Source: an uncultured Candidatus Saccharibacteria bacterium
Lineage (GTDB): Bacteria > Patescibacteriota > Minisyncoccia > Minisyncoccales > CG1-02-41-26
Reading direction: 5' to 3'
Assembly (NCBI GenBank): GCA_964580085.1
Contig: CAZOJF010000001.1
Location: 1,607-65,606 of the forward strand
Length of the DNA: 64,000 bases
The notes beneath the pieces are model-generated. The model had not been told where the DNA came from. It worked only from the letters and a program-made list of their open reading frames with translations, and did not search any database. Below are positions 33,761-64,000 of the stretch, one piece after another. The position numbers and the translations under genes are program-made. Every line of letters begins with the position of its first letter. The first letter of the stretch is position 1.

Positions 33761-33785
33761 GATTTATAAGTATTATTTTAATCCC

Positions 33786-34976: not shown

Positions 34977-34982
34977 AATTTT

Positions 34983-35894: not shown

Positions 35895-36268
35895 TTTGTC
35901 TGATGTTTAAAGTATTCTTTAATCTTTGCTAAAAGTTGTTTTGGTGTAAATTCCGTTTTAATTAAATAATCCTTGACTCCTAACTCCTTTGCTTTTTCTT
36001 TTGTAACAGAATCATCATAATTTGAAAAAATAATCACTGGGACTTTAGAAACTTTCTTTATTTGCTTTACTTCTCTTAAAAAAGTTATGCCACTTTTTCT
36101 GGGCAATAAAATGTCCAATAAAATTAAATCTGGGATGTTCTTCTTTAATATATCTATAGCTTGTTCCGACGAAATAGCAGAAATAACTTGAAAGTTTTCT
36201 ATCTCAAACTTAGTTTTATACATTTCAATTAAAAATGTTTCGTCTTCCACTATTAAAATTTTTCTCAT
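35891..36268 (-). CDS. Stand-alone response-regulator receiver domain
   Basis: KILIVEDETFLIEMY...LILLDILLPRKSGITFL. 125 aa. Overlaps the exonuclease gene by 4 nt. Confidence 0.8.
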   Translation of the reverse strand: MRKILIVEDETFLIEMYKTKFEIENFQVISAISSEQAIDILKKNIPDLILLDILLPRKSGITFLREVKQIKKVSKVPVIIFSNYDDSVTKEKAKELGVKDYLIKTEFTPKQLLAKIKEYFKHQTK

Positions 36269-36394: not shown

Positions 36395-36793
36395 ATGCAA
36401 TTCAAAATACCACAATTTTTAGAAAGACAACCTCTTATAATCGGCCCATTAGCTTTTAAACAGTCTCTTTATTTTGGAATCGCTATATTAATTTCATTTT
36501 ATTTATATTCTGTAGCCCCCTTTTTTATATTTTTAATATTTTCTATTCCCTTGATTAGTTTTGCCTTTTGTTTAGCTTTTATAAAGATCGAGGGAATACC
36601 TTTGCCTGAAGTAATAATTCAATCTTTTGGCTTTATTTCTTCTCCTAAAATATATCTTTGGGAAAAGAAGGAAAACCTTAGGCCAATTAAATTTAGAGCT
36701 CAAAAACAGGAAGAGAAAAAAGAAGAATCATTAAAAGTAGCTCCTGAAAGTATCCTGGAAAAGCTCCACTCTAAAATAGAAGGAGGATATTAA
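36395..36793 (+). CDS. PrgI/VirB3-like small membrane protein (type IV secretion)
   Basis: 132 aa with two hydrophobic helices. Its position directly upstream of a VirB4-like ATPase mirrors prgI-prgJ / virB3-virB4. Confidence 0.45.
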   Translation: MQFKIPQFLERQPLIIGPLAFKQSLYFGIAILISFYLYSVAPFFIFLIFSIPLISFAFCLAFIKIEGIPLPEVIIQSFGFISSPKIYLWEKKENLRPIKFRAQKQEEKKEESLKVAPESILEKLHSKIEGGY

Positions 36794-36810: not shown

Positions 36811-37467
36811 ATGGCTAATTTATCGTCTCAACAATTTCTAGAATTTGATCAAGTCAAAAATGGAGTTATTGTTCTCAAAAATAAAACTCTCCGAGCTGTT
36901 TTAATGGTTTCCTCTTTAAATTTCTCATTGAAATCTGAAGAAGAACAATCAGCAATTATTTATCAATTCCAATCTTTTTTAAACTCTTTAGACTTCCAAT
37001 GCCAGATTATTGTCCAGTCTCGCAAAACAAATATTACCGGTTATTTTGATAAACTAAAAAAGTTGGAGACCAAGCAAGAAAATGAACTTTTGAAAATTCA
37101 AACAAGTGAATATAGAAAATTCATTGAAGGGTTAGTTGAAAATGAAACCATAATGAGAAAAACTTTTTTTGTCGTAATCCCTTACTCTCTGGGAGAGACA
37201 GAAAAAGAAAATACAAATAATAAAGGATTTTTCAATAAAGTGTTTCAAAAAACAAATTTATCCGAGATTAATGAAGAAAACTTTAAACGTTGTCGGAATC
37301 AGCTTTGGCAGAGAATGGAATTTGTGGCAATTGGGTTAAGAAGATGTGATTTATCAACAACACCTTTGACAACGCCTGAATTAATAGAACTTTTGTGGAG
37401 CTGGAACCATCCTAAAGAAGCTGAGGTGGGATATTATCCAGAGATATTACCCGAATTGATCAAATAA
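36811..37467 (+). CDS. Hypothetical protein in the T4SS-like operon
   Basis: 218 aa. No motif. Lies between the VirB3-like and VirB4-like genes. Confidence 0.4.
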   Translation: MANLSSQQFLEFDQVKNGVIVLKNKTLRAVLMVSSLNFSLKSEEEQSAIIYQFQSFLNSLDFQCQIIVQSRKTNITGYFDKLKKLETKQENELLKIQTSEYRKFIEGLVENETIMRKTFFVVIPYSLGETEKENTNNKGFFNKVFQKTNLSEINEENFKRCRNQLWQRMEFVAIGLRRCDLSTTPLTTPELIELLWSWNHPKEAEVGYYPEILPELIK

Positions 37468-39269: not shown

Positions 39270-39671
39270 ATGTCTGAACAAGCAGTAGCAGAAAATCAAT
39301 CCGGGGCAACAAGGCTAATGGAAAACATTTTTTCCATAGAGGGAATTATGATGTTGTCTTTTGCTGCTTTTATTGATGTAGGAGAAGCTGTTTTTGAACT
39401 CATCCCCGTAGTCGGAACAATTATTTCGGCAATACTTGACATTATTGCTTTAATATTTATTGGTCTTTTTTGGATGCGTCTATTCAGAGGGCACGGAATA
39501 ACTGCTACTAAAAAAACTGGTTCTGTATTAAAAAAAATAGCAAAAACCGGGAAAAAATATAAATGGTTAAAACCTTTTTGTATGATTTTTGAAATGATAC
39601 CTATTGCTTCAAGTATTGCCCCTTTGTGGGTAGTGGCTGTATTGCTTGAGCTATCGTCTAGAGAAGATTGA
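39270..39671 (+). CDS. Hypothetical small membrane protein (2-3 TM) in the T4SS-like operon
   Basis: 133 aa with hydrophobic helices (IMMLSFAAFIDVGEAVFELIPVVGTIISAILDIIALIFIGLFW). Confidence 0.4.
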   Translation: MSEQAVAENQSGATRLMENIFSIEGIMMLSFAAFIDVGEAVFELIPVVGTIISAILDIIALIFIGLFWMRLFRGHGITATKKTGSVLKKIAKTGKKYKWLKPFCMIFEMIPIASSIAPLWVVAVLLELSSRED

Positions 39672-39684
39672 AAAAATATTTATT

Positions 39685-42411
39685 ATGGCTATCAGTCCTA
39701 AAATAAAAAAACAAATTATATTTATAATATTGGGTATTATTTTTATATCTTGTTTTTATTTGATATGGAGAACATTTATACCCCAAACAAATACTCCTCC
39801 TCCTGAGGAAAAAATTGAATATGAAAAAAAAGATCTTGTTTATTTCCAAATACCTATTGGGAAAATAGTTGAAAATATTGTTTTGAGCAAAGAAGCTGAA
39901 GAAAAAACTGATGAGATTAAAGCCCGAATAAAAGATGTCCGAGATTCATCTGAAAAATTAAAAGATCTTTCTCAAGAGCTAAAGAAACTTACGGATGAAT
40001 GCACTTGTGGCCAATCTTCTTGCCAAGAAGTTGAATGTAAAAATGGATGTTGTTGCCAAGCGCAAGGATGTTCAGCAATAAATACTTGTTCAAAGCCAGA
40101 GGGATGTTTTATAGAAAGCCCTGGTTGTGACCTTTCAAGTGCTTGCCCAGAATCAAATTGCGATATAGAAAAAATCGAAGAAAAAACGCATGAAATGGAA
40201 GAGTTAATAAACAAAATTGAACAAGAACAAAAAAAAATGTTAGTTGCCCAGCTCTCTATAACTAACGATTATCTAAATTTGAACAAAGTCAAAACAATGA
40301 TTTCTTCAACTACAGAGGCTATTGACTATGAAACCTTTTTTAATAGGAAAGATCTGATTCAAATTGAGAACCAAGAAGAAGTTAAAATAGAAACTTTTTA
40401 TGGCTGGCCAAATACTCCCACGATCGAAAAACAGGGACAGACGTTTTTTGATCCGGCTACTATATATTTTGATAAAACAGAAATAAAAAATGAAAACATT
40501 ATTAGCGCGTCTACATGCTTTGAATTATTCATGATTATCTCCAACCAATCCCCAGATAAAATTGCTAAAATAATGGATGAAAACGCTAAAGAAGTTCTGG
40601 GGAAGATAAACTTTGGAGAATTAATACCATCTGCCGACAGAACAAATGAAATCATACAAAAAACAACCAAGGAAACTATCTCTTCTTTCTCTAATAACTT
40701 GTCTGAAAAAATGTCTGATATGCTTTCCGCGAGAATAGCTGAAGCTATTGTAGAAGAAATGAAAGGAGATTCTGGAATTAAAGCCAATTTACCCGTCAAA
40801 TTAATCGAGCCCATGTCTGTTATATTGCTTAAAGAATTACCGGCCGAATTAAAAACTATTTTTGAGGTCGAAATAAAAACAAATGTTTTAAATATTTTGG
40901 CCAACACTGATTTATTTTCACCTAGAATAAGCAACTTATTTTTTGAAAAATTAGAAAAATTTATTCCTGCTGACCTAGCAAATATTCTTTCTCAAAACAT
41001 TGGGAAGATATTGCCCAATAAGCTCATGGGATTAATAAATGAAGATATTATTAAGGAATTATTTAAATTGAACTTGGATGAAACTCTTTCTAATAAAATA
41101 TTGCAAAGAATAAATTCAACCTTAGATATTTCTCTGTTAGATGAGATTGATCAGCCTCTACACTTAAGTTTGACAAATAGTCTATACCCCGGGATAGAAA
41201 ACTTTTTATCTGAAAATATGCCTCAAACCCTCGGTTTCTCGTTCTCAAATAAAGAAGAGTTAACTATTAATATCCATAAAATCTTGGAAGAAAATTTATT
41301 CGATATTTTACACAAGCACTTAGAAACTGAATTAACCTTGAAACAAGCTCGGGACTTTTCTTTGGCTCTGTCTAATTCCGAGATCCTTCAGAAAAAACTT
41401 GAAGAAGACATCTCTAAAAACTTTGACTCAATGATAGAAGAGAATATTGAAAAAATAAAAAAAGAAATATCATATAATATTTCGGACAAAATATCTTTGG
41501 AAATGTCCCCTGAAATAACTAATTTAGCACTGGAAGAGTTTTCTATTAAGGTCTCCAAAGACCTAGGAAAGATTATTTCTTCGGCAATATCAAAAACCGT
41601 TGAACAAGGAATACTTTTGAATTCTCTTTATGAGGTTTTCCCTTCGTTTGAACAAAAAAACTCTAATGAAGATAAAATCTTTTATCCCCAAGACTGCAAA
41701 TTTATGTTGCCCGGGATAAACTCTTCTGCTAAAGAAGACGAACAATTTGAAGCTTGCTGGGGAACTAAAGCTATCTATGATTCTATTTCTGAACAAATTA
41801 ACGTGATGAACAAGATAATAGAATTAATTCAAGACTCTGAAAAAGGATGCAACCCTAATATTTGTTCCCCTCAGTGTGTAGATGCTACCTGTTATGCTAA
41901 AGATTTTTATTGTGGAGAATTTAAATTAGAAGAATTTTTAGGGGCCTGTAGTGAATGGCAAACATCTTATCCAAATGGGCCTTTGCCATGTAAAAGTGTA
42001 TATTCTGATTTTTATAATCAAAACGGAGAATTCAAAGCTTGTCCGTCTATTTATTTAGCAAACGAGTTGGTAAAAGAATACTATTTAAAGATTGAGGATG
42101 CTCATAAAAAAATAAACGAAATATTTAAAGAAAAATATGACCAAAAAAGTTCAAGTTTTAAAGAATTTATTGAAAAAATCGTTAAAAAGTCAGAACTAAT
42201 AAAAGAGCTCGGGAGTGAATTAACCCAGATGACCAACGAGTGTAAATGTAGCAAGACTTCTCTGTGTGAAAAAATTTCTCCTGGGTGCGAACCAAAAGGG
42301 TGCTCTCTTTCCAGCCAATGTTCTGAAACAGATATTAAAAATATCAACGAAAAAATTAACGATATTGAATATGCTATACAAGATTTATATTATAATGCCA
42401 AACAAAAATAA
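39685..42411 (+). CDS. Large cysteine-rich secreted/membrane-anchored protein
   Basis: N-terminal TM (IFIILGIIFISCFYLIW). Cys clusters CTCGQSSCQEVECKNGCCCQAQGCS and, near the C-terminus, GCNPNICSPQCVDATCY. Start set at the ATG at 39685; the ORF track used an upstream UUG at 39646 that overlaps the previous gene. Confidence 0.6.
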   Translation: MAISPKIKKQIIFIILGIIFISCFYLIWRTFIPQTNTPPPEEKIEYEKKDLVYFQIPIGKIVENIVLSKEAEEKTDEIKARIKDVRDSSEKLKDLSQELKKLTDECTCGQSSCQEVECKNGCCCQAQGCSAINTCSKPEGCFIESPGCDLSSACPESNCDIEKIEEKTHEMEELINKIEQEQKKMLVAQLSITNDYLNLNKVKTMISSTTEAIDYETFFNRKDLIQIENQEEVKIETFYGWPNTPTIEKQGQTFFDPATIYFDKTEIKNENIISASTCFELFMIISNQSPDKIAKIMDENAKEVLGKINFGELIPSADRTNEIIQKTTKETISSFSNNLSEKMSDMLSARIAEAIVEEMKGDSGIKANLPVKLIEPMSVILLKELPAELKTIFEVEIKTNVLNILANTDLFSPRISNLFFEKLEKFIPADLANILSQNIGKILPNKLMGLINEDIIKELFKLNLDETLSNKILQRINSTLDISLLDEIDQPLHLSLTNSLYPGIENFLSENMPQTLGFSFSNKEELTINIHKILEENLFDILHKHLETELTLKQARDFSLALSNSEILQKKLEEDISKNFDSMIEENIEKIKKEISYNISDKISLEMSPEITNLALEEFSIKVSKDLGKIISSAISKTVEQGILLNSLYEVFPSFEQKNSNEDKIFYPQDCKFMLPGINSSAKEDEQFEACWGTKAIYDSISEQINVMNKIIELIQDSEKGCNPNICSPQCVDATCYAKDFYCGEFKLEEFLGACSEWQTSYPNGPLPCKSVYSDFYNQNGEFKACPSIYLANELVKEYYLKIEDAHKKINEIFKEKYDQKSSSFKEFIEKIVKKSELIKELGSELTQMTNECKCSKTSLCEKISPGCEPKGCSLSSQCSETDIKNINEKINDIEYAIQDLYYNAKQK

Positions 42412-42416: not shown

Positions 42417-43142
42417 ATGAAATTTTATTTTAAAATCCTGGGATTATTTTTAGTGTTGCTCTTAATTTATATTGGGGCCAACCTAGAAAAACAAAAAAAA
42501 GAAGTTTTTGCGGAAAACAAAACACTAGTTTGTAATACAAAAATTCCCATTGGAGAGGCCGTAGACGAGACATCCGATTTATTAAATAATGTATATGTTG
42601 AAATGAAGAACATCCACGACACTGTCCCTAGCCAAATAAATGCAGCAAAAGAAATGATTAAGGCTGTCCAAGCATGTAATCTTAAAAACTGTCAACCTGT
42701 TTGCGTTGATATAAGTTGTTATAGTTCTTCTTTAGGAGATGAAAACAACTTATGCTCCCCCAACTGCAAAACAAAATGTATTGCCAAAGAATGTCAGGGA
42801 AAAATTTGTCCTGATTTAGGATTAATTGATGATTTAATCAGCGATTATTTTGAAAAAATAGATAAGTCTTTTAAAGAAATAAATAATCTGTATGCTGAAA
42901 ATATTGAAAAAATTGACCAAAAAATAGAGTTATCCCGAAAAGAATTTAATAATTGTGCTCAGAATGAAACTGCGGAGACGATTAGATGCCAAGATATTTT
43001 TAATAAAAACTATACATTTTCTGTTGAAAAGATTAAAGAATGTGAAATTTTTTGTAAAGAAAATGAAAAAGCAGGAGAAATAACTTCTGCTTGCTTAAAA
43101 TGTCTTTGCTCTTCCTCTATAAATTATTTTTGTTGTGATTAG
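42417..43142 (+). CDS. Cysteine-rich secreted protein (shares a CxxNCxPxCVDxxCY motif with the upstream gene)
   Basis: N-terminal TM/signal sequence. ACNLKNCQPVCVDISCYSS...CSPNCKTKCIAKECQGKICPD. 241 aa. Confidence 0.55.
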   Translation: MKFYFKILGLFLVLLLIYIGANLEKQKKEVFAENKTLVCNTKIPIGEAVDETSDLLNNVYVEMKNIHDTVPSQINAAKEMIKAVQACNLKNCQPVCVDISCYSSSLGDENNLCSPNCKTKCIAKECQGKICPDLGLIDDLISDYFEKIDKSFKEINNLYAENIEKIDQKIELSRKEFNNCAQNETAETIRCQDIFNKNYTFSVEKIKECEIFCKENEKAGEITSACLKCLCSSSINYFCCD

Positions 43143-45321: not shown

Positions 45322-46686
45322 ATGATTAACAAAGAAGAACTCTGGCAAGCTGTTCTTGCCCAGACACAACTTAGCACATCTAGAGCTAGTTTTGCTACTT
45401 GGTTTTATAAAACTAAAATTGTCTCTATGGATAATGGAGAAATTTTAATTTCTGTTCCAAATTCTTTTTCCAAGGAATGGTTATCTAAAAAATATCATAA
45501 CTCCATCCTTAAAATTATCCGTAGTTTAAACAAAAACATCCGAACCATAAATTATGTTGTTAATTTAGAAAAGCCTCAAGGCCCCACGAAGAAAAAACAA
45601 CCGACAGAAGAATCAGAAATAAATCAATTGCGTCTTGATAGGTTTGAAATAAACCAAACAACAAATCTTAACCACCATTATACTTTTGACAATTTTGTAA
45701 TTGGTTCTTTTAACGAAACTGCTCACGCTGCTGCTTGGGCCGTCTCTGAAAATCCAGGATTCGATTATAACCCTCTTTTTATTTATGGCGGAGTTGGGCT
45801 GGGCAAAACACATCTTTTAGAGGCAACTGGGAATAAAATTCTGGAAAATTTTTCTAAGAAAAAAATCGTTTATGCCCCTGCGGAAAGATTTACCTCAAAA
45901 ATAGTGACAGCGATTAGAGAACACAAAATCGAAGAACTAAAAACAGAACTCCGAAACATTGATGTTTTAATTATGGACGATATCCAATTTCTAGCTGGGA
46001 AAGAAAAAACACAAGAAGAATTTTTTCATATTTTTAACGCTCTGCGTGAATCAAATAAACAAATAATATTATCTTCGGATAGGCCACCAAAAGCTATCCC
46101 GGCACTAGAAGAAAGATTAAGATCCCGATTTGAAGGTGGAATGATAATGGATATCGGCTTGCCCGATTTTGAGACTAGAATGGCTATATTAAAAACAAAA
46201 TGCGAAGAAAAGAATATTGAATTAAAAGGAGATGTTTTAGAATATATCGCTGCAAATATCCAAAAAAATATTAGAGAGATGGAAGGAGCCTTAAATAGGC
46301 TGTTGATTTTTAATAAAATGAATAATAAATCTCCGGACGTTGAAATTACTAAAAAACTCCTTCATAGTTTAATGCATTTTCCAGCTAGATCTACTAATTA
46401 TAAAAAAATTGTTCAGACGATAGCTCAATTTTATGATTTAAAAAAAGATGATCTTTTAGCTAAAACAAGAAGAAAAGAGATTGTTAGACCCCGACAGATT
46501 GCTATGTATTTACTAAGATCTGAATTAAAAGAATCATATCCGTCTATTGGTAGAAAATTTGGGGGGAAAGACCATACAACTGCAATTTATGCTTGTGAAA
46601 AAATATCCAAAGAAATGGAAAATAATCCTAATTTGATAAATGATGTTAATTTGATAAAACAAAGAATTTATAGTGGAACTATTTAA
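45322..46686 (+). CDS. dnaA: Chromosomal replication initiator protein DnaA
   Basis: Walker A GGVGLGKTHLL, Walker B LIMDDIQFL, a sensor II region, and the C-terminal DNA-binding signature (HTTAIYACEKI). 454 aa. Confidence 0.95.
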   Translation: MINKEELWQAVLAQTQLSTSRASFATWFYKTKIVSMDNGEILISVPNSFSKEWLSKKYHNSILKIIRSLNKNIRTINYVVNLEKPQGPTKKKQPTEESEINQLRLDRFEINQTTNLNHHYTFDNFVIGSFNETAHAAAWAVSENPGFDYNPLFIYGGVGLGKTHLLEATGNKILENFSKKKIVYAPAERFTSKIVTAIREHKIEELKTELRNIDVLIMDDIQFLAGKEKTQEEFFHIFNALRESNKQIILSSDRPPKAIPALEERLRSRFEGGMIMDIGLPDFETRMAILKTKCEEKNIELKGDVLEYIAANIQKNIREMEGALNRLLIFNKMNNKSPDVEITKKLLHSLMHFPARSTNYKKIVQTIAQFYDLKKDDLLAKTRRKEIVRPRQIAMYLLRSELKESYPSIGRKFGGKDHTTAIYACEKISKEMENNPNLINDVNLIKQRIYSGTI

Positions 46687-50172: not shown

Positions 50173-50273
50173 ATATTATAATGATAACATATTTTATTTT
50201 TGAAATCTTGGTGTATTGGAAAGCCCTGCTGAAAGCAGGGCTTAACGATTATTCTTTTTCTGTGTCGGCTTTC

Positions 50274-50495
50274 CTATTCTTCCTCATCATCGCTACTTTC
50301 TTTTTCCTCTTCTTCTTTTTCTTCTCCTTTTTCCTCTTCTTCTTTTTCTTCTCCTTCTTCCTCTTCTTCTTCTTTCTCTTCTCCTTCTTCCTCTTCTTCT
50401 TTCTCTTCTCCTGCTTCTTCAGTCTCGGTTTCTTCTGTGTTTTCTTCGTCGTCTTCGCTAACAAATGGGTTTAAAATATTGTCTTGAATTTCCAT
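50274..50495 (-). CDS. Putative small highly acidic protein (Glu-rich repeats)
   Basis: MEIQDNILNPFVSEDDEENTEETETEEAGEEKEEEEEGEEKEEEEEEGEEKEEEEKGEEKEEEEKESSDDEEE. It has a non-repetitive N-terminus, but the coding status of a low-complexity repeat is uncertain. The alternative Lys-rich frame was rejected. Confidence 0.3.
   Translation of the reverse strand: MEIQDNILNPFVSEDDEENTEETETEEAGEEKEEEEEGEEKEEEEEEGEEKEEEEKGEEKEEEEKESSDDEEE
50280..50460. repeat. Tandem ~27-nt direct repeats (CT-rich on the plus strand) encoding poly-Glu/Lys low-complexity sequence
   Basis: Units such as cctcttcttctttttcttctccttttt recur about six times. All three minus-strand frames are open across the repeat. Confidence 0.7.
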
Positions 50496-51746: not shown

Positions 51747-52373
51747 TCAATATTCTTTTTCGATTTTCTTTTTTAAAAACAAAACAAAAATCCCAGAAGA
51801 AGTAGCCACAGATAAGGCAATCAAGAAAGTAAAAAATGAACTTTGTCTTTTGTTCTCTTGACGATCTTCTAGTATTGTTGCCTTTTTATTATTTTGTTCG
51901 GCAAGGGACGAGATTAGCACAGGTTTTTCTTTATCATTAATTTTTTGTCCTTTACTATTTTCATTTTTAGGAGTCCCTCCAGAATTTTCACTTGTTTGCC
52001 AGTTTTCTAGGTTACCCCCATTAATCAAAACATTTTTCCTTTCCATTGTTTTTTTAGTCTCATTGTCGCCAAAAAACCATTTTTTTGAACAATCTATTCC
52101 ATCTATTATTTTTTTATTTTGATCAATTAGTTTTAAATATTCTCCGTTATTATTTAAACTGCCTTTGTATATTAAATCAGAATCGATGCTTACTAATGTA
52201 GTTTCATTAGTTCTTTCCAAAATAAAAAATCCCTTAGCTGGGATTTTATTTTTTAAAATAATATTTGGAGTTTTATCATTGCTTATTATCTCCCACCCCT
52301 CTAAGTCTATTGGAGATGACGAATTATTATATAATTCGATCCATTCGTCGTTAGCAGAATTTTCAGTTCCCAT
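51747..52373 (-). CDS. Lamin-tail-domain (LTD) protein with a C-terminal membrane anchor
   Basis: EWIELYNNSSSPIDLEGWEI... is the LTD signature. C-terminal TM (FFTFLIALSVATSSGIFVLFL). 208 aa. Confidence 0.6.
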   Translation of the reverse strand: MGTENSANDEWIELYNNSSSPIDLEGWEIISNDKTPNIILKNKIPAKGFFILERTNETTLVSIDSDLIYKGSLNNNGEYLKLIDQNKKIIDGIDCSKKWFFGDNETKKTMERKNVLINGGNLENWQTSENSGGTPKNENSKGQKINDKEKPVLISSLAEQNNKKATILEDRQENKRQSSFFTFLIALSVATSSGIFVLFLKKKIEKEY

Positions 52374-52672: not shown

Positions 52673-53968
52673 TTAATTTTTTGTTGTTCTATCCACTTCT
52701 TCTATTGTTGTTTCTCCTTTTAAAACTTTCATTAGGCCATCTTCTCTCATCAAAACCATACCTCTCTTGCGGGCAATTTTTCTCAAATCAGCCACAGAAG
52801 GAGATTTTAGAATAATGTTTTCCATTTCGTCGTCTTTCAAAAAAAACTCAAATATTCCGGTTATCCCCTTATACCCTGTAAAATTACAATCTGGGCATCC
52901 TTGAACTCGGGCGATTTTTAAGTCTTTATTTATTTTAGGCACTTTTATCTTCTTTTCTAGTGGGCTTAACTCTTTTTTTAACATTTTTATTTCTTCTTTT
53001 GTAGGGGGAGAGTATTTAACGCATTTTTTACAAACTTTTCTCACCAATCTTTGGGCAATAACAATATTTATAGCCGGTCCGATGTTAATAGCTTTTTCTC
53101 CTAAGGATTGTAGCCTAGCAATTGTTCCCGCAGCGTCATTAGTATGTAGGGTTGTTAAAACTAAATGTCCCGTGAGCGAGGCTTGTAAGGCAATTTTTGC
53201 TGTTTCATGGTCTCTTATTTCCCCAACTAAGATTACGTCAGGGTCTTGTCTGACAATCGCTCGCAGCCCATTCAAAAAGGTATACCCTTTTTCGGCGTCA
53301 ACTTGAGTTTGAGATATTCCTTTAATTTGATATTCAATTGGGTCTTCTATAGTTATAACCTTAATTTCTGGGTTTTGGATTCTTTTTAGGGCAGCATATA
53401 AGGTTGTTGTTTTCCCTGACCCAGTAGGGCCGGTTACGATTATCATTCCATTTAATTTTTTAATCTCTTTTTTAAACTGATTAAAAATATCTTTTCTTAT
53501 TCCTAGTTCCTCAATTTCTACGATCTTTTCCGGATTTAATATTCTCATGACCACAGACTCCCCATTTTTACAGGGTAGCACAGATGTTCTTATTTCCACT
53601 TCTTTCCCATCAGTCAAGATAGTAAACCTGCCGTCTTGAGCTTTTTTTGTAACATTTAATTTAACTCCTGATAAAAGTTTAATCCGAGAGAGTAGAAAAT
53701 GATATATTTTATGTTCTATAAATAAAACATCATGCAAAATCCCATCAACTCTAACCCTTATCTTTATGCCTGTTTCTTCTGGCTCCATATGTATGTCAGA
53801 AGCACCAAGACATATTCCACCAGCAAAAATAGTTTCTAAAATCCGGCTTGTTTCTTTTCCTAATATTCTTTCAATTTGATTTTTAAAATCGGAAACGTTT
53901 TTAACATTTTTTTCAATGTTAAAAGAAACATCTTTACTTATTTCTATTTGCCCACCAATTTTTTTCAT
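52673..53968 (-). CDS. GspE/PilB-family secretion ATPase (type IV pilus / type II secretion)
   Basis: Walker A VTGPTGSGKTTTLYA, Asp/His boxes, and a C-terminal tetracysteine motif (CKKCVK...CPDCNFTGYKG). At 431 aa the N-terminal domain is shorter than in PilB. Confidence 0.8.
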   Translation of the reverse strand: MKKIGGQIEISKDVSFNIEKNVKNVSDFKNQIERILGKETSRILETIFAGGICLGASDIHMEPEETGIKIRVRVDGILHDVLFIEHKIYHFLLSRIKLLSGVKLNVTKKAQDGRFTILTDGKEVEIRTSVLPCKNGESVVMRILNPEKIVEIEELGIRKDIFNQFKKEIKKLNGMIIVTGPTGSGKTTTLYAALKRIQNPEIKVITIEDPIEYQIKGISQTQVDAEKGYTFLNGLRAIVRQDPDVILVGEIRDHETAKIALQASLTGHLVLTTLHTNDAAGTIARLQSLGEKAINIGPAINIVIAQRLVRKVCKKCVKYSPPTKEEIKMLKKELSPLEKKIKVPKINKDLKIARVQGCPDCNFTGYKGITGIFEFFLKDDEMENIILKSPSVADLRKIARKRGMVLMREDGLMKVLKGETTIEEVDRTTKN

Positions 53969-55488: not shown

Positions 55489-56769
55489 TTATGGGTTGCA
55501 AAAAACAGTTGCTATTTTAGGTTTTCTCCCGTCTTCTGGATGGGGAAGATAAACATAGCTCCCCTTTAGGCTTGGATAACATCCTTCTCCTTTGAAAATA
55601 TGTGACCTTCCGCTGAAATCTTTTTTAGTATTAAATATAACCCAGCAACCTTTTTTAATTTCAAAGGAAAGAACATCCCATGCATTAAATTCTACGGATT
55701 TCCCAAATTTATTAAATTGGGACAAAGACAGAGAACCTCCACCAGGCGAATCGCCTGCTTTTATTTCTTCGCTATGCCCATTTTCTTCTTTTTCAGCACA
55801 TTCAATATCATCATAAAAAGTTACGCTTCCTCCAGATGAGGATTGACTTATAGGAACAACGTTTGAAACATCAATTGAAGAGATAGTGCCTTTTACATTA
55901 TTTATGTTAAAATCTTTTTCAGAGATAGCAACGCCGATACCGTGTTCTCCTTCAAACATGGGATCTGAGAATAAGATTGATAAATATGAAAATTCGTCCT
56001 CTAAGTCTTTTATCATTATTGATTCTATTTCATTATCATAACTTTTAATTTCATCAGCGCTTGTTTGTAGAAAAAGAGGCGGCGGCGGAGTGCCATGTCC
56101 GGCTTTGGTATATAAATAAACTCCAGGGTCATGCCAAAGAAAATAAATAGATTTTACATTGCTTACGGAGTAAGATCCTCCGTTATTTTTCTTTTCCTCT
56201 GAATTCTTTCCATTAAAAGTTTCTTCAGAACAAATAAAAACGGAAAGTAATTGATCTTTGTCACTTATAAACTTTAAAGAGGCAGCTTTAAATGAAATTC
56301 CATTTTTACTATCAGCCATATAATATTCTTCGCCTTGATTGTTTATCAAATATATCCCTGAAATTGGCTCAACGTCTTGTATACTTGGCGCTACTATTTC
56401 GGGGTTAATAGTGGATAAAATTAAATAAGAGCACAATATAATAAATAGACCCGCAATACCAGAAGACAACCATGTTCTGGCATCTTTTTTTGCGCTTGGA
56501 TTGTCAAACGAAAGTAAATAGCGGATTCCGCCATAGATAAAGACAGCAAAAGCAATCACAGCCGCGATTATCAATCCAAGGCTGAAAAAGTATACAGCGT
56601 ATCCTGATATTGTGGTTGAAGTGGTTATTTCTATTCCGTTTAATGGCGGGTATTTAACTTCCAATCCTCTTTTCCCTGTATTATCGGCAAAAGCGAAAGA
56701 ACTTACTGAAAAGTACAAAAGCAGGGCAAGGAGTAAAAAAATAACTAATTTTAATTTGTTTAATTTCAT
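55489..56769 (-). CDS. Pilin-domain fusion protein, paralog A (N-terminal TrbC/VirB2-like pilin core + ~300-aa C-terminal domain)
   Basis: MKLNKLKLVIF... signal peptide, then GIEITTSTTISGYAVYFFSLGLIIAAVIAFAVFIYGGIRY..GIAGLFIILCSYLILSTIN. This is two hydrophobic helices around an IYGG turn, as in TrbC/VirB2 pilins. Start placed at MKLNKL (56767-56769), which overlaps the upstream gene's stop by 1 nt. Confidence 0.55.
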   Translation of the reverse strand: MKLNKLKLVIFLLLALLLYFSVSSFAFADNTGKRGLEVKYPPLNGIEITTSTTISGYAVYFFSLGLIIAAVIAFAVFIYGGIRYLLSFDNPSAKKDARTWLSSGIAGLFIILCSYLILSTINPEIVAPSIQDVEPISGIYLINNQGEEYYMADSKNGISFKAASLKFISDKDQLLSVFICSEETFNGKNSEEKKNNGGSYSVSNVKSIYFLWHDPGVYLYTKAGHGTPPPPLFLQTSADEIKSYDNEIESIMIKDLEDEFSYLSILFSDPMFEGEHGIGVAISEKDFNINNVKGTISSIDVSNVVPISQSSSGGSVTFYDDIECAEKEENGHSEEIKAGDSPGGGSLSLSQFNKFGKSVEFNAWDVLSFEIKKGCWVIFNTKKDFSGRSHIFKGEGCYPSLKGSYVYLPHPEDGRKPKIATVFCNP

Positions 56770-58103
56770 TATTCCCGATGAGGGATAATTACTGCACTTT
56801 GAGGCAAATATTCTTCGCAATTTGCTGAGCCATAACATTTCTGATAAATAGTTGTTCCCTTTAAATTATCTACGTCTTCTGAAAACTGCTCAAAGGGTCG
56901 ACAATATCCTCTAAGAATATATTCCTCTTCGGTATTTAAAACAACTGTGACATTGGCATTAATCGCTAGGGAATTCCAAATTTCTAACCCCGATTCTTCT
57001 CGAGTAACCCCAGCAACAACGTCAATTAGCTCTTCTGGTGGAGATTCGTTCCCTTTTTGTTTGATTTCATCATAAAATATTACTTCGCCATGCATTTTTG
57101 CAGTTTTAAAAATGGCAATCGAAGAAATTTTACCTTTTATGTTATCATTATTATTAAAATTTGGCGTAGAAGAAAGCACAAAATCACATTTTCCTCTATC
57201 ATCTTTATTGAAATTAGGTTTTTCGAATAAAATTACATAATAAGAACCTAAGCCTGAAGGTTCTGAAGAGAGGTCATCCACAATTCTTAATGATTTAATT
57301 TCATTATCAAATTCTTCTTTAAAGCTTATTTGACTTGTTTGGATAAATTTTGGACGGGGTGGATTATTAAACTCTTTGTCATATCCTTCTTCTTTATAAA
57401 GATAAACTCCTGGCTCATGCCAGAGTAAAAACATTGAACCCACGTTACTCACGTCTTGTGTTGTGCTTGCCCCTGTATTTTTTATTTCTTCTCTTGCTTC
57501 TCCTTCTAAATTTTTCTCATCATAGATGTACACAGAACATAATTCGTCTTTATCGGGGTTAGCGTAACTAATATCTTCTGGTTTATCGCTTATAAATTCT
57601 ATATGGTCAACCTCAAAATATTCAGGGATACTATTGAATATTGGATCACTGTAAGGTATTTTCTCTCCTTCTTTATCTACTAAATATATGCCTGATAATG
57701 CTTTTACATCCGGGACATTTGGAATAAGTATTCCTTTATTAATAATCCCTATAACGAACCAAGCAGAAAGCAAAAGCATTAGTCCTAATATTGATTCCCA
57801 AATCCATTTTTTAGCATCGTTCATTGCTTCAGGATTGCCAACCGATGTTACATAGCGGAAACCTCCGTAAATTAAAATCGCAAAAGCAAGAATAGTTCCT
57901 ACAATCATAGCAAGGCTGAAAAAGTATACAGCGTATTCTGATATTGTGGTTGAAGTGGTTATTTCTATTCCGTTTATTGGTGGATATTTAACTTCTAGCC
58001 CTCTTTTTTCTACGTCATCAGCAGAAACAAAAAGGTTAAATGAAAAACATAAAAGCAAAATAAAAGATAAGAAAAATAAAAAATTTAATTTGTTTAATTT
58101 CAT
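56769..58103 (-). CDS. Pilin-domain fusion protein, paralog B
   Basis: MKLNKLNFLFF...KRGLEVKYPPINGIEITTSTTISEYAVYFFSLAMIVGTILAFAILIYGGFRY... is nearly identical in architecture to paralog A. The C-terminal domain is also paralogous (SGIYLVDKEGE..., LLWHEPGVYLY). Confidence 0.55.
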   Translation of the reverse strand: MKLNKLNFLFFLSFILLLCFSFNLFVSADDVEKRGLEVKYPPINGIEITTSTTISEYAVYFFSLAMIVGTILAFAILIYGGFRYVTSVGNPEAMNDAKKWIWESILGLMLLLSAWFVIGIINKGILIPNVPDVKALSGIYLVDKEGEKIPYSDPIFNSIPEYFEVDHIEFISDKPEDISYANPDKDELCSVYIYDEKNLEGEAREEIKNTGASTTQDVSNVGSMFLLWHEPGVYLYKEEGYDKEFNNPPRPKFIQTSQISFKEEFDNEIKSLRIVDDLSSEPSGLGSYYVILFEKPNFNKDDRGKCDFVLSSTPNFNNNDNIKGKISSIAIFKTAKMHGEVIFYDEIKQKGNESPPEELIDVVAGVTREESGLEIWNSLAINANVTVVLNTEEEYILRGYCRPFEQFSEDVDNLKGTTIYQKCYGSANCEEYLPQSAVIIPHRE

Positions 58104-58131
58104 AATAACTAATTATTTATTATTTTATAAT

Positions 58132-59052
58132 CTAACTTCCTTCTATGCAGCAAAAGAAATTATACATTAAATCTCCGACTGCTTCCTGGCAGTCTAAACC
58201 GTCTTTGTTTTCCTTACATCTATTTCTTTGCTTTTCTTCTAGCCAATATTCACTATTATATGGGTAGCAAACTTGACTTGGGTCAGGCACAAGCTTGTCA
58301 AAGCATACTTCTTCTGGTTTTGAAATAAATTTATCAAATCCGGGCACAATAAGTAATTCAGCTAAACTTATTTTATCAAGAGCAATCATGCAGCTTAAAA
58401 GAGTAGCTGTTGCTCTCTTGTCTTCTAAAACTCTTGTGTATCCCATTAAGCAATTCTCCAATTTATTTCTAGAATCAGTGAGAGTTAAAATAAGTTTCCA
58501 TCTATTTAGGGGTTGATTTTTTTCTACCAAAGGACCTTCAGCATGAGCCAAATCATAAATATTCTCATCAGCCTTTATTATTTTTTTAAGATTATTTCTA
58601 ATTGCTGAAACAAAACCACGAGCTTTAGCCATAAGCTTGTTAAAGTTGTCACACCAACAAACTTTTACACAATTCTCACCGTCTTGATCGCAATCTTCTC
58701 TACATTCAATTTCACAATTTCCACATTTAAATTCCGTAGACATAGCAGTCAATTTATCGGCATTACTAATAGCGGCTTTAGTGTTTGATACTATTATATT
58801 AAGGTTTTTGAGTACTTCAGCCCCAAAAAACTCGGAGTAATCTACTAGTTCACCGATAGGTATCTTACCACTTTCAAAGCCGTTTTTTACTTCGGGGTCA
58901 ATTAAACATTTATATGTAATTTCTTGGATTAAGTCTTCTTCTTCTTGGGCGATAATATGTCTTTCTGATAAAAACAAAAAACCAAAAGACGTCAATACTA
59001 TCATAGTAGCGATCATAATAAAGTGTATTTTTAGAAATATATTTTTTTTCAT
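58132..59052 (-). CDS. Cysteine-rich secreted protein
   Basis: N-terminal TM. CGNCEIECREDCDQDGENCVKVCWCDNF and further Cys pairs. Start set at the internal Met (MKKNIF), which avoids overlapping the upstream gene. Confidence 0.5.
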   Translation of the reverse strand: MKKNIFLKIHFIMIATMIVLTSFGFLFLSERHIIAQEEEDLIQEITYKCLIDPEVKNGFESGKIPIGELVDYSEFFGAEVLKNLNIIVSNTKAAISNADKLTAMSTEFKCGNCEIECREDCDQDGENCVKVCWCDNFNKLMAKARGFVSAIRNNLKKIIKADENIYDLAHAEGPLVEKNQPLNRWKLILTLTDSRNKLENCLMGYTRVLEDKRATATLLSCMIALDKISLAELLIVPGFDKFISKPEEVCFDKLVPDPSQVCYPYNSEYWLEEKQRNRCKENKDGLDCQEAVGDLMYNFFCCIEGS

Positions 59053-59054
59053 AA

Positions 59055-60323
59055 CTATTCTAAAAGTGAACAATAAAAAGTTGCTGGATTTCCATCAAAA
59101 ACAAAATATTCTTTTATGTCTTTTTTACCTGTTGCTTGTACTGTTGCTTGAGTTGTTGTTGCTCCACATAAACGCCATTTATCGTTTAATTCATATTTAA
59201 TACAAAATTTCTTTTTAGGATCGTCTTCAAATTTCCACTCTATACAATTAAACTCTATGCAATATTTTCTAATATCTACTCCATCGTATTCTTCTTTCTC
59301 AATATTTTTATTCTCTTGCCTAAATTCAAAAAATTTAACTAAATTAAACGGTGTTCCATATCGGCATTTATTTTTTAATATAGATTCCACTTCTCTTAGT
59401 CTGTCTAATTCTTTTTTGTATAGATTCCTCATCTTAGTTATTCTGGTTAACCCTAAGTCTAAATATAAATAATTAGGATCAGTATTTCCATCTCCATGAA
59501 GTAGTTTATCAATTTCTTTTATTTTTGCATCTATTTCACCTCTAGGACATGGGTCAGGACCAGTACAAGGAGCACAAGATTGAGCATTGGTACAATCGCA
59601 TTTACTACAACTACATTGTGCATAAAGTGCAACTAAATCTTCGGCTAAATCTATTAGTTCTTCTATTTTTATCTTTAAAGCTTTATCTAGACGAGCAACA
59701 CAATCAAAAAAGTCGTGATCTTTCATCATTTTTACTCCGCCTCCTCCTCCACCACTACCACAACAACATGGACAGCCAGCAGGAGGATCAGTCATGTTTC
59801 CTTCATCATTATAATTATAGCAGTCTATATTTTTAGCCAAAAGTTGCTCTACTATTGTTCCTACCGGTAGTTCTTGAAATGTTTTTTTATCAACGGTTAT
59901 ATTTATTGAAGGAGTTGTTGTACTGTTTCCTGTCAAGTCATTAAAACGTATTTTTAAAATATCAGGATTAATAGCATTTAAAATTAGATAAGAACAAAGT
60001 GCAATAATCAAACCTAAAATTCCGCTTAAAAGCCAATTTTTCCCCTCATTATGAGCGGTTGGAGAATTGCCGGAAGTCAGAAAGACAAAACCGCCATAAA
60101 TTAGGACGGCAAAGGAGGCTAAAGCAACAATAATTAAAGAGACCTGAAAAATATATTTTACATATTCTGGCAGAGTAGCATCGTCGCTTAATCCCGGTTG
60201 CCCTCCAATTGCAGGATAAGTGGTTTCTAACCCTGTATCATCTGCAAAAACAAAAGACAGCGATGAAAAAGAAAAAACGAGGAGCAATAAGAATAATATA
60301 AATTTAGATTGATTCAATTTCAT
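59055..60323 (-). CDS. Pilin-domain fusion protein, paralog C (Cys-rich C-terminal domain)
   Basis: MKLNQSKFILF... signal, then EYVKYIFQVSLIIVALASFAVLIYGGFVFLTSGNSP...GILGLIIALCSYLILNAINPDIL (same pilin core). The C-terminal domain contains CPCCCGSGGGGGG and CSCSKCDCTNAQSCAPCTGPDPC. Confidence 0.55.
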   Translation of the reverse strand: MKLNQSKFILFLLLLVFSFSSLSFVFADDTGLETTYPAIGGQPGLSDDATLPEYVKYIFQVSLIIVALASFAVLIYGGFVFLTSGNSPTAHNEGKNWLLSGILGLIIALCSYLILNAINPDILKIRFNDLTGNSTTTPSINITVDKKTFQELPVGTIVEQLLAKNIDCYNYNDEGNMTDPPAGCPCCCGSGGGGGGVKMMKDHDFFDCVARLDKALKIKIEELIDLAEDLVALYAQCSCSKCDCTNAQSCAPCTGPDPCPRGEIDAKIKEIDKLLHGDGNTDPNYLYLDLGLTRITKMRNLYKKELDRLREVESILKNKCRYGTPFNLVKFFEFRQENKNIEKEEYDGVDIRKYCIEFNCIEWKFEDDPKKKFCIKYELNDKWRLCGATTTQATVQATGKKDIKEYFVFDGNPATFYCSLLE

Positions 60324-60621
60324 GTTGTATTTATGATATTTTACCACAATATAAATTTAAATAAAACAAATTGATTTAATAAAAATAAATAAGCGTTTTA
60401 AAACTTAAAAGATAAATTAAAAAATAAACTGAACATAAAAAAGCAAAATTTATTTGCTCTTAACTTGGCTTTTAAACCTTTAAAATATTATTCTTATTAA
60501 ATTTCCAAGTAAAATAGAGATAATCTTTTCTAAAAATAATCTTATTTTAGAATTTTAATATCAAATTTTTCAGGGAAAAAGAAAATAAAGTTTTTAACTA
60601 AAAAAGAAGAGAAAATTTAAT

Positions 60622-61056
60622 TTATTCTTCAATAGATTCCCTATAAGTATCTTTTTCTGATATATTTTTTGGTTTTTCTTTAATTCTCTCGCTTTTGTTG
60701 ATCTTTGATCTAATTATTTTTCCGCTAGGAGATAATTCAGTTTCATATAAAGAACCCAACGCTTTTTTAACGGGATAGAAAATAAATCTATTAATTTCTA
60801 AAGAAACTTTTTTGGCTATTAAAGGTTCTATATTTATTTCTTTTTCTAAAAAATTCTGTAATTTATCGGGAGACAATAACCCCATTAAACTGTTTCCAAC
60901 TAATTTGGCGATTTTAGATCTTTTTTCTTCAATTTTATATTTTTCACAAATATCAGAAATTTTTTCTGCTGTTTCTTCAGAAAGAATAGCTTCTTTTAGT
61001 TTTTCAGGGAGGACTTCAAAAAGCTCTCTGAGTTGTTTTTGATTATACTCTATCAT
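60622..61056 (-). CDS. Hypothetical protein
   Basis: 144-aa ORF. Charged. No motif. Confidence 0.35.
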   Translation of the reverse strand: MIEYNQKQLRELFEVLPEKLKEAILSEETAEKISDICEKYKIEEKRSKIAKLVGNSLMGLLSPDKLQNFLEKEINIEPLIAKKVSLEINRFIFYPVKKALGSLYETELSPSGKIIRSKINKSERIKEKPKNISEKDTYRESIEE

Positions 61057-62552: not shown

Positions 62553-64000
62553 TTAGATTATCTTGGATTCATCATCTTCTTCAACTTCTTCTTCCTCTTC
62601 TTTCTTTCCTGGAGAGAGGTTTTCACCTTTCGTTTTTTTTAATTTTTTCCATGCTCTCCTTCTACTAACCGGAGGAGTACCTTTATCTGGTTGATCCGGA
62701 TTTGTTGGTCCAGTATCTGTAGTCTCTTCATGCGATAAACCAGGCGTTTCTTTTCCATCTTGATTAAAATCAATCCCCAAGTTTTTCCCAGCATTATTAC
62801 TGATATATTTATGAGCGGCAGGAACATTCTCGCTGTAGTAAACTTCATTCGCCACATTATTTTTAAAGCTTTCAAAGAAATCATCTCCGAATTGTTTTGC
62901 CATTGCACTAATTTTAGATCCTTTTAAAGATTTGTGAAAAACTTCTGACTCTAGAGCAGTATTCATTGTCTGTTTGGACCATTTAGATATGTCTTTTTCA
63001 CTTGCAGTAGCTGCTAGTTTTTGAGATACGGTTTTGTATTTAATAATATCTTTTTCATCCATAAAAACTCCTGCTTCTTTAGCCAAATTATCTTCTATCT
63101 CTTTCCCAGTTTTACCGACTATTTTTTCGGCTATTTTTATTTCAGATTTGGCAAAAGTTTTAAATGAGCTTGGGAAGAGCTTAAGAGTGTCTCGCATTAT
63201 CTTTTCCTTATCTTTATCACCAAATCCAACTGCTTTTTCTATCTTATCAATATTCCCTTCTTCTATTATTGTTTGTAATGCTTGTATTCGTTTTGTAGCG
63301 CTAGGACTGTGTAATAAAACATTTTGTTCTTCAAAAGATTTTCCTTTTGCCAGCTCTTTTGCTTTCTGACCTTCTTCTCTCTCATGACGGGCGATATTGG
63401 CTGTCAATCCTCGTCCCGCATATCCTAATAGCCCTCCTCTTGCTTTTTTATTTTCTCCTCCCGTTCCTGTTTCATGTTTACCTATTCTCTTATTCATTAA
63501 TTTTTCGCCGATCCATTTTCTTGGTCTTCTTGTAGCTTTTTCTGCACCTGTCCCTGCTAATTTGGCTCCCCAAGGTATCGCTTTTCTAGCATTGGAAGTA
63601 ATGAAACTTGCCCCCATGGCTCCGGTTTGAAGAGATATAAAGAAGCCAGCGGCAAGGAAGGAGACAGGCACTATATAGCCCATTATTTTTCCCATTGAAC
63701 TCATTTCTCCTAGTAATTCACCCTGAAGCATTAGTCGAGTCATTTCATTCGCGAGATAAATAGTAAAAGCGGCTGGTATCCCGATAAAACACCATTGCAT
63801 AAATTGGCTAAGCCACATATTCCACATTTTTTTTGTACCTGGGAAAATATAACAAAAAAGAGCGAGAGGAGAAAGAATAACAAGCATCCAAAGAGCGATA
63901 TACCTGAAAAGAAAGAGAGCGGAGTAAAGAAGGAAAATAATCCCTGAAAAAAGACTAGACCCAACAAGAAGCAATCCTGTTGCCAGCATACCCGAAGGGC
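62553..64000 (-). CDS. Polytopic membrane protein with a charged, Pro-rich C-terminal tail. It is a possible VirB6/TrbL-like T4SS component, and the 5' end probably lies beyond the window.
   Basis: Several TM helices (LLVGSSLFSGIIFLLYSALFLF..., ILSPLALFCYIF...) and a hydrophilic tail (TGPTNPDQPDKGTPPVSRRRAWKKL...EEEEEVEEDDE). The reading frame stays open upstream of the M at 63989 to the window edge. Confidence 0.35.
   Translation of the reverse strand, partial: PSGMLATGLLLVGSSLFSGIIFLLYSALFLFRYIALWMLVILSPLALFCYIFPGTKKMWNMWLSQFMQWCFIGIPAAFTIYLANEMTRLMLQGELLGEMSSMGKIMGYIVPVSFLAAGFFISLQTGAMGASFITSNARKAIPWGAKLAGTGAEKATRRPRKWIGEKLMNKRIGKHETGTGGENKKARGGLLGYAGRGLTANIARHEREEGQKAKELAKGKSFEEQNVLLHSPSATKRIQALQTIIEEGNIDKIEKAVGFGDKDKEKIMRDTLKLFPSSFKTFAKSEIKIAEKIVGKTGKEIEDNLAKEAGVFMDEKDIIKYKTVSQKLAATASEKDISKWSKQTMNTALESEVFHKSLKGSKISAMAKQFGDDFFESFKNNVANEVYYSENVPAAHKYISNNAGKNLGIDFNQDGKETPGLSHEETTDTGPTNPDQPDKGTPPVSRRRAWKKLKKTKGENLSPGKKEEEEEVEEDDESKII

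Follow-up and report, generated by a model that had tools for sequence, protein, structure and literature searches.

We analysed a 64,000-nucleotide stretch of contig CAZOJF010000001.1 from an uncultured Candidatus Saccharibacteria bacterium (hereafter, the window), with a focus on an array of four genes at positions 55489-60323. Three of them encode paralogous pilin-like proteins, here called pilins A, B and C, and the fourth encodes a cysteine-rich protein. Each of the three pilins has a signal peptide and a hydrophobic hairpin, which sequence comparison supports as a VirB2-family pilin domain, and continues into an extension of about 300 residues. Structure prediction and profile searches indicate that the extensions of A and B consist of about three domains of the beta/gamma-crystallin type, and the combination of pilin and crystallin is found in a large family rather than being an oddity of one genome. 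We think it probable that these genes form a four-gene operon belonging to a type IV secretion system of the Gram-positive type, encoded near the chromosomal origin of a Patescibacteria (Candidate Phyla Radiation, CPR) bacterium, and that in this system the hairpins are assembled into a pilus or stalk and the extensions face outward.

An array of three extended pilins

All four genes lie on the minus strand, in the order pilin C, cysteine-rich protein, pilin B and pilin A (Table 1). The starts given in the table are in part shorter than those of the listed open reading frames (ORFs). Pilin C is listed as 59055-60347, and the ATG at 60323 is its likely true start, since the resulting 422 residues are also the length of the database representative P0078. 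The cysteine-rich ORF is listed as 58132-59073 and likely starts at the ATG at 59052. The true start of pilin A is the MKLNKL ATG at 56769, the longer listed ORF (to 56838) being an artefact. The ATG of the cysteine-rich gene overlaps the stop of pilin C by 4 nt, a gap of 28 nt separates the cysteine-rich gene from pilin B, and the ATG of pilin A overlaps the TAA of pilin B by one base (TAATG). This spacing indicates that the array is one translationally coupled operon. It is preceded by an AT-rich spacer of 270 bp upstream of pilin C, and tsaE converges on pilin A at the downstream side. A promoter scan gave nothing above shuffled controls, and terminator-like sites were about three times as frequent as the shuffled mean but lay mostly inside ORFs. 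Hence, the limits of the operon rest on gene spacing. The search of Rfam found nothing near the array, its only match in the window being a transfer-messenger RNA (tmRNA). The window has a G+C content of about 30% and a uniform composition.

The three pilins are related far beyond chance. A and B share 39% identity from end to end (E-value 4e-79), whereas C resembles them only within its first ~130 residues, with 45% identity to A over ~107 N-terminal residues (E-value 3e-24) and 40% to B over ~100 residues (E-value 5e-21). The C-terminal part of pilin C resembles neither A nor B. The original prediction for this DNA had described three tandem genes with a common architecture of signal peptide, two-helix hydrophobic hairpin and extension of about 300 residues, related throughout in A and B and ending in a different, Cys/Gly-rich domain in C. 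This description holds for all three proteins, and the quoted strings (AFAVFIYGGIRY... and CPCCCGSGGGGGG) are present. The cysteine-rich gene that it placed within the array is also real, sits between C and B, and is conserved in related loci.

The N-terminal hairpin is a VirB2-family pilin domain

The pilin domain of all three proteins exceeds the gathering cutoff (26.6 bits) of the Pfam family PF18895 (T4SS_pilin), with scores of 28.6 bits for A, 37.8 for B and 29.8 for C. Weaker matches were found to the NCBIfam model NF045849, a pilin-like conjugal transfer protein of Mycoplasma integrative and conjugative elements (ICE), by B (26.5 bits, E-value 3.9e-6) and C (20.9 bits, E-value 2e-4), against a cutoff of 40. 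A profile of the pilin domain (alignment A4) retrieved 104 short proteins of 84-191 residues, mostly annotated as PF18895. Some of these short relatives match both PF18895 and the TrbC/VirB2 family PF04956. One of them, P0216, reaches 45.2 bits with PF18895 and 28.7 bits with TrbC (cutoff 27.9); for another, P0212, TrbC is the best match, and the hhalign comparison of A4 with this protein gives a probability of 97% (E-value 1e-11). Among 109 sampled cluster representatives that carry the extension, which we scanned against Pfam, two match TrbC (best E-value 3e-7). The TrbC/VirB2-like core of the original prediction is thus upheld by the PF18895 scores and, through the short relatives, by a connection to TrbC, but not by a direct match to PF04956. 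NCBI already names a member of 419 residues "pilin".

The three pilins have signal peptides of the AxA type, cleaved between VSA and DD, AFA and DN, and VFA and DD, and the alanine of the signal peptide (Ala28) is almost invariant among the 109 relatives. In the structural models, the two hairpin helices of B span residues 54-86 and 91-121, and those of C residues 53-83 and 88-118. The hairpin carries invariant residues that are specific to the family: YP, GG, S, P, G and N. A motif (I/L)IYGG(F/I) had been put forward as the turn that is the hallmark of such pilins. We could not sustain this, as it is not a recognised hallmark of VirB2 and IYGG lies inside helix 1 of the B model, about two turns ahead of the loop. 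The actual turn is a conserved TSxGNP segment that precedes helix 2. The N-terminal segment is acidic and the loop is basic (R83, K98 and K99 in B), which predicts a topology with the N-terminus out, the loop in and the C-terminus out. Given this charge distribution, the extension of ~300 residues is predicted to lie outside the cell.

The extensions of A and B resemble beta/gamma-crystallins

The AlphaFold2 model of B, based on an alignment of 69 sequences, has a predicted local distance difference test (pLDDT) score of 82.7, and of ~85-94 in the region of the extension. It consists of a signal helix, the hairpin, a Pro-rich linker of lower confidence (~122-137), and an all-beta part from 139 to 441. 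When this model was compared with the PDB by Foldseek, the top matches were solely beta/gamma-crystallins. The two-domain gamma- and beta-crystallins match at E-values of 2e-5 to 4e-4, with a probability of 1.0 over ~215 columns and a target-normalised TM-score of 0.63-0.73, followed by single microbial domains (3hzb, clostrillin, an archaeal domain) with a target-normalised TM-score of ~0.7. A profile of the extension searched against PDB sequences found 3hzb (E-value 2e-4) and Protein S (E-value 6e-4). The Pfam family Crystall (PF00030) is matched by A below its cutoff of 25 (18.4 bits, E-value 0.0023) and gives no match with B. There is an internal repeat in B, where the segment 135-230 aligns to 231-335 (E-value 7e-6). 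The alignment has three starts of the G(I/V)YL type, at 138, 232 and 339, together with (Y/F)xxxx(F/Y)xG motifs; serines are invariant at 223, 328 and 378, and S271 is nearly so. The Foldseek and profile matches, the internal repeat and the repeated motifs together indicate about three crystallin-type domains of ~100 residues each. The large C-terminal extensions of the original prediction are real and conserved, and they are predicted to face outward.

To assess how common such proteins are, we searched the extension profile against 1.84 billion cluster representatives. We obtained 810 matches at an E-value of at most 1e-3, of which 292 at 1e-10 or below and 53 at 1e-30 or below. Most of the best 150 are proteins of 400-480 residues in which the match begins around residue 120-200. 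Among the 109 sampled representatives, 98 match PF18895, 13 match Crystall (E-value at most 1e-3, best 4.4e-9), eight match Inhibitor_I36 and two match Crystall_3. Both parts occur together in at least ~100 clusters at 50% identity, and the fusion of pilin and crystallin, as judged from these matches, is a large family. The names attached to the relatives are "Patescibacteria group bacterium", "Candidatus Parcubacteria" and "Ca. Nealsonbacteria"; the scan of a genome collection gave three loci only, so that the taxonomic spread rests on metagenome proteins. A 2.8-kb contig with two such pilins (L002, JAYEGQ010000153.1; protein P0053) is binned as "Thermotogota bacterium". Given the affiliation of all other relatives, it is probably a mis-binned fragment of Patescibacteria. 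On two other contigs, of 6.8 kb (P0130 and P0073) and 2.5 kb (P0129 and P0021), a short pilin-only protein appears to be paired with a separate crystallin-type protein. Natural splitting of an extended pilin may explain these pairs, as may frameshift or assembly artefacts.

In the papers that we searched, neither extended VirB2-like pilins nor crystallin domains attached to such pilins are mentioned. The large extensions, including the widespread crystallin-type one, thus appear to be undescribed in the literature searched. The suggestion of an uncharacterised family is not supported as far as the pilins are concerned: the pilin family is already curated as PF18895 and its tandem arrays have been published, and it is the extensions that seem to be new.

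Pilin C and its cysteine-rich partner

Pilin C has 49 homologues, mostly full length. Its model has a pLDDT of 59 overall; confidence is good for the hairpin and for helices at 205-320, and poor at 322-422. The cysteine-rich protein gave no relevant match in Pfam (E-value up to 1) or NCBIfam, barring one sub-threshold chance match, and neither database showed similarity to VirB5/TraC. Its orthologues, of 320-435 residues and with many invariant cysteines, occupy the same position in four related contigs (L001, L005, L006 and L007). In three further proteins, P0107 and P0116 (both of 702 residues) and P0115 (ORF L004:2-1954), pilin C runs unbroken into the mature cysteine-rich protein, and the junction is the signal-peptide cleavage region (ISAQ) of the latter. 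The fusion is supported by hhalign (E-value 2.7e-67) and by BLASTP, in which residues 407-697 of P0107 are 40% identical to the cysteine-rich protein of the window (E-value 5e-65). Because the two are fused in some genomes, we predict that pilin C and the cysteine-rich protein work together outside the cell.

We also considered whether the outward-facing domain of pilin C is a paralogue of the cysteine-rich protein. This was not established: BLASTP found no similarity between the two proteins, and hhalign gave an E-value of 0.005 with a probability of 7%. A hidden Markov model (HMM) of the cysteine-rich protein has no other match in the window. Of the 284 six-frame ORFs in the window, only four contain the motif [ILVF]P[IV]G.[ILAV]V[ED] with a long helix and a cysteine cluster after it; the motif was defined after seeing these sequences. 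They are pilin C, the cysteine-rich protein, and the proteins of 921 and 241 residues encoded in the VirB4 cluster described below. The 921-residue protein matches pilin C at an E-value of 6e-4, and it is the best non-self match of an HMM of the outward-facing domain of pilin C (E-value 1.4e-4); the other pairs have E-values of 0.005-0.03. The proteins of 241 and 306 residues both end in N(Y/F)FCC. Orthologues of the 241-residue protein were found by the metagenome scan in the same genome only. The motif may mark a shared extracellular module of the secretion system that ties the array to the core machine, for which the support is weak but consistent.

The array is conserved in related contigs

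The gene order pilin C, cysteine-rich protein, pilin B, pilin A recurs in four other contigs from metagenomes or metagenome-assembled genomes (L001, the same stretch as L003 from GCA_030619905.1, L005, L006 and L007). A fifth, L004, has the fused form of pilin C and cysteine-rich protein. The opposite-strand tsaE follows pilin A in the related contigs, L005 ending just past pilin A, and L001, L006 and L007 continue with a DHH-like gene, a T2SSE ATPase, a lamin-tail-domain (LTD) protein and YebC; PBP1 and dnaN lie further away. Exactly three ORFs per locus match the profile of the pilin domain.

The proteins at the A position form a well-conserved group of orthologues (51-83% identity), and those at the B position diverge faster (40-67%). 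From these orthologue groups, the duplication that gave rise to A and B is older than the genomes compared. Within the groups, the hairpin is 77-79% identical and the extension domains 57-74%, the lowest values being those of the two distal domains of B. This pattern, in which the hairpin is conserved and the extensions vary more, is consistent with an assembly core that stays constant and an exposed part that diversifies.

A type IV secretion system around dnaA

The other genes of the system are spread over the window (Table 1). A cluster of PrgI-, TrsD- and VirB4-like genes lies 12-19 kb from the array and is followed by jag, yidC, dnaA (45322-46686) and dnaN. VirB4 is apparently split: the TrsD-like ORF of 218 residues matches positions 107-263 of NF045975 as well as TrsD, and the ATPase of 594 residues matches the CD1110 model from about position 177 onward. 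The VirB6-like gene, 2.2 kb upstream of the array, encodes a protein with a weak match to TrbL that is 59% identical to a PF19590 TrbL_3 protein of 647 residues in L007, from residue 208 of the latter. The protein of 144 residues encoded next to pilin C is 58% identical to an ORF of 148 residues in L006 and 30% identical to one of 125 residues in L001, both at the same position. A Band_7-like gene lies upstream of the array on the other strand.

This layout matches a published arrangement, and the kind of system is therefore already known. Quinonero-Coronel et al. (2025) reported VirB4, TrsD, PrgI and VirB6 of the Gram-positive type (MPF-FATA-like) near dnaA in Patescibacteria, VirB2-like pilins in 1,948 assemblies, and tandem pilin arrays, of which they surveyed 441, that are sometimes interrupted by a non-pilin gene (PMC12102498). 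Wang et al. (2023) showed for Ca. Southlakia epibionticum that neither such an array nor the secretion system itself is dispensable (PMC10633639). Hence, the VirB2-like pilin arrays of Patescibacteria are of a known kind, and what is new here is apparently the extensions and the coupling of pilin C with the cysteine-rich protein.

Table 1. Pilin array, secretion-system genes and nearby ATPase, with positions in the window
Feature	Position	Strand	Remarks
PrgI/VirB3-like gene	36395-36793	+	PrgI E-value 2e-4, below cutoff
TrsD-like gene	36811-37467	+	matches to TrsD and the VirB4 N-domain
VirB4 ATPase	37485-39269	+	NF045971 (CD1110 family) 366.8 bits, cutoff 325; TraG P-loop, AAA_10
Membrane protein	39270-39671	+	133 residues
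Cysteine-rich protein	39646-42411	+	921 residues
Cysteine-rich secreted protein	42417-43142	+	241 residues
GspE/PilB-type ATPase	52673-53968		1.5 kb downstream of the array; T2SSE E-value 1.5e-115
Extended pilin A	55489-56769	-	426 residues; architecture as B; hairpin ~56407-56610; outward-facing domain (predicted) 55492-56367
Extended pilin B	56769-58103	-	444 residues; signal peptide 1-28; hairpin residues 54-121 (57741-57944); Pro-rich linker
Pilin B outward-facing domain (predicted)	56772-57701	-	residues 135-444; about three beta/gamma-crystallin-type domains (predicted)
Cysteine-rich protein of the array	58132-59052	-	306 residues from the MKKNIF start; secreted or anchored; without pilin hairpin
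Extended pilin C	59055-60323	-	422 residues; signal peptide 1-27; hairpin residues ~53-118 (59970-60167)
Pilin C outward-facing domain (predicted)	59058-59954	-	residues ~124-422; helical, Cys/Gly-rich
Small conserved protein	60622-61056	-	144 residues; directly upstream of pilin C; no family match
VirB6/TrbL_3-like polytopic membrane protein	62553-64000	-	N-terminus cut by the end of the window

Assembly of the pilins and alternative explanations

In the scheme that we favour, A, B and C would be exported by the Sec pathway, with the extension outside the cell. By analogy with other VirB2-type pilins, the machine formed by VirB4 and VirB6 would extract the hairpins from the membrane, and these would polymerise into a pilus or channel stalk from which the extensions would project as built-in adhesin or contact domains for the surface of a host cell. 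The hairpin is the most conserved part of the proteins, with invariant residues specific to the family, which argues that it is more than a simple anchor. The structures of the F-pilus and T-pilus have both termini exposed on the outside, with the loop facing the lumen. These pili are five-start helices ~87 Å wide, with an outer surface of ~55 x 13 Å per subunit, to which the cross-section of a crystallin domain is comparable. Judged from these general dimensions, three domains forming a radial arm on each subunit would make a tight fit, though not an obviously impossible one.

Several observations weigh against this scheme. None of A, B or C matches PF04956 directly at an E-value up to 1. The profile of the hairpin found no solved pilin among PDB sequences, only chance transmembrane hairpins (E-value above 0.5), and Foldseek with the full model of B listed no pilin structure. 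With the model of pilin C, which is poor, it returned nothing below an E-value of 0.1. The Ca2+-binding motif N/D-N/D-x-x-S/T-S, inspected by eye, is only partial in A and B, as DNEIES and DNEIKS in domain 2. PF18895 is a family defined by homology, and we recall no experimentally characterised member. [quoted passage not shown] A homopolymer of 45-kDa subunits would moreover be tightly packed on the surface of the filament. Finally, no short pilin was found with the pilin-domain profile in the window or in five related loci.

The preferred scheme has two variants. In one, A, B and C would be the true subunits of the shaft, giving a "bottle-brush" pilus with a surface lattice of crystallin domains and the complex of pilin C with the cysteine-rich protein as a specialised subunit. 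We put this forward tentatively. In the other, to which we give the same tentative standing, A, B and C together with a VirB5-like cysteine-rich protein would be adhesins inserted rarely or at the tip of a shaft made of short PF18895 pilins whose genes lie elsewhere in the genome. Short pilins of the family are abundant in related metagenomes, steric crowding speaks against homopolymers, and in having a signal peptide and a helical region the cysteine-rich protein is like the VirB5-type tip proteins. This second variant is at odds with the lack of a short pilin in the six loci, with the strict conservation of three extended genes per locus, and with the above-mentioned lack of Pfam similarity of the cysteine-rich protein.

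A somewhat doubtful alternative is that the hairpin is only a membrane anchor, and that A, B and C are surface proteins that do not polymerise, either independent of the machine or static parts of a channel. It would account for extensions that are large, multi-domain and similar to cell-surface adhesins, and it requires no globular domains on a VirB2-type pilus, of which none is known. It also agrees with the lack of evidence for filaments in the phylum, a recent review (2025) treating a pilus only as a "possibility" (PMC12857230). Yet the hairpin, and not the extension, is the most conserved part, the VirB6-like gene adjoins the array in every locus examined, and in Southlakia the pilin array is co-essential with the secretion system (PMC10633639).

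That the array encodes the mating pilus of an integrated conjugative element transferring DNA is very improbable. The VirB4 belongs to the CD1110/ICE family, and the pilin domain weakly matches the ICE protein of Mycoplasma. However, Pfam scans of 40 ORFs of the window, including most of the larger ones, revealed no relaxase, coupling protein or integrase, and we rejected this explanation on that ground. In addition, the genes are set among housekeeping genes around dnaA in an order conserved in several genomes, composition is uniform, and relaxases were found in only 103 of the 3,035 genomes of the published survey (PMC12102498).

The original prediction had drawn attention to a PilB/GspE-like ATPase just downstream. 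The gene is real, and its best NCBIfam matches are GspE/PilB (TIGR02533, TIGR02538), below the equivalog cutoffs, the VirB11 models scoring far lower. It is evidence neither for nor against the pilus. Two genes, the convergent tsaE and the DHH-like gene, separate it from the array. VirB2-type pilins are not assembled by ATPases of this type. The ATPase is part of a different machinery (type II secretion or type IV pili) and an orphan in the window. The idea that A, B and C are type IV pilus pilins or type II secretion pseudopilins assembled by this enzyme, whose position is kept in related loci, is hardly tenable. There is no prepilin motif in their sequences (class III signal, cleavage between G and F/M-TLIE, Glu at +5), and they are therefore not pilins of type IV pili; they have instead an AxA signal peptide, two transmembrane helices rather than one, and a match to PF18895 rather than the pilin N-methylation motif. 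We rejected the type IV pilus explanation on the type of signal peptide and the topology. The window ORFs that we scanned include neither PilC nor prepilin genes, and the conserved position of the ATPase is uninformative, because synteny extends equally to the entire region (YebC, RuvC, PBP1, dnaN). The LTD protein beside the ATPase (51747-52373, minus strand), which has a C-terminal membrane anchor, has the same neighbour in L001, L006 and L007.

Other features of the window

An ORF of 926 residues (15604-18384, minus strand) contains an intein with a LAGLIDADG homing-endonuclease domain (Intein_splicing E-value 9e-26), and the tmRNA gene (9392-9765, plus strand; Rfam RF00023, 126 bits) is full length. 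A signalling cluster at 27654-35894 (minus strand), unusual for a small genome, comprises three stand-alone receiver proteins, a PAS histidine kinase, a HAMP protein and a protein with a PocR sensory domain; a fourth response-regulator receiver gene lies at 35891-36268, just upstream of the core of the secretion system. The low-complexity stretch 50181-50495 has poly-Glu/Lys or poly-Phe/Leu ORFs in several frames of both strands; rather than a set of genes, it probably represents a spacer of simple sequence or an acidic tail.

Comparison with known systems

The closest known systems are the pilin arrays of Patescibacteria, such as SEML1_0014-0019 of Ca. Southlakia epibionticum (PMC10633639; PMC12102498). 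They match the same Pfam family above its cutoff and are likewise in tandem, broken by a non-pilin gene, and near dnaA with VirB3-, TrsD-, VirB4- and VirB6-like genes and no relaxase nearby. The paralogues of our array are 39-45% identical, as compared with an average of 25% and a maximum of 54% in the survey (PMC12102498). The main difference is in size. The Southlakia pilin genes compared here measure 381-417 bp, whereas the proteins described here have 422-444 residues and folded extensions of ~300 residues. A small size (about 90-190 residues) is typical of the described members of PF18895 and is not a formal criterion of the family; A, B and C are well above it.

With the TrbC/VirB2/TraA pilins of the T-pilus and F-pilus (PF04956), A, B and C share the signal peptide, the hydrophobic hairpin, the short basic loop and the presence of VirB4 and VirB6 homologues. 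They differ from these pilins in their single-membrane host, in the large globular extension at the C-terminus, in the absence of VirB5, VirB7, VirB9 and VirB10, and in lacking a direct match to the family, the link to which runs via the short pilins that match both. The Mbov_0395 family of Mycoplasma (NF045849) is a further relative from a conjugation system of the single-membrane, Gram-positive type. It consists of hairpin proteins of ~80 residues; these are short and borne by ICEs, and the matches of our pilins to the family are below its cutoff. On the side of the extensions, the microbial beta/gamma-crystallins (Protein S, spherulin 3a, clostrillin, 3hzb of Flavobacterium; PF00030/PF08964; Inhibitor_I36) are alike in fold (probability 1.0, TM-score 0.63-0.77) and in the repeated signatures G(I/V)YL..., (Y/F)xxxx(F/Y)xG and Ser. 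A and B are highly divergent from them, with domains of ~100 residues that contain insertions and with an incomplete Ca2+ motif. We found no described fusion of a crystallin domain to the pilin hairpin of a secretion system in the literature.

The function of the system and the mode of host contact in Patescibacteria are still open questions (PMC10633639, PMC12857230). In the only species of the phylum that is genetically tractable, epibiotic life depends on the secretion system with its pilin array, which are essential to it (PMC10633639). The extended pilins are concrete candidates for host contact, and their soluble domains are suited to expression, binding tests and the raising of antibodies. 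They also raise a structural question, namely whether a VirB2 lattice can accommodate a passenger of 35 kDa on each subunit. Pilin C and the cysteine-rich protein, fused in some genomes and separate in others, add a predicted interaction between proteins, and the motif shared with two cysteine-rich proteins of the VirB4 cluster hints, weakly, at further links. If A, B and C do form the shaft, a single-membrane bacterium would be making a VirB2-type filament into which globular adhesin domains are built, the first of its kind, and many CPR bacteria would have in it the physical organelle for holding their hosts or exchanging material with them.

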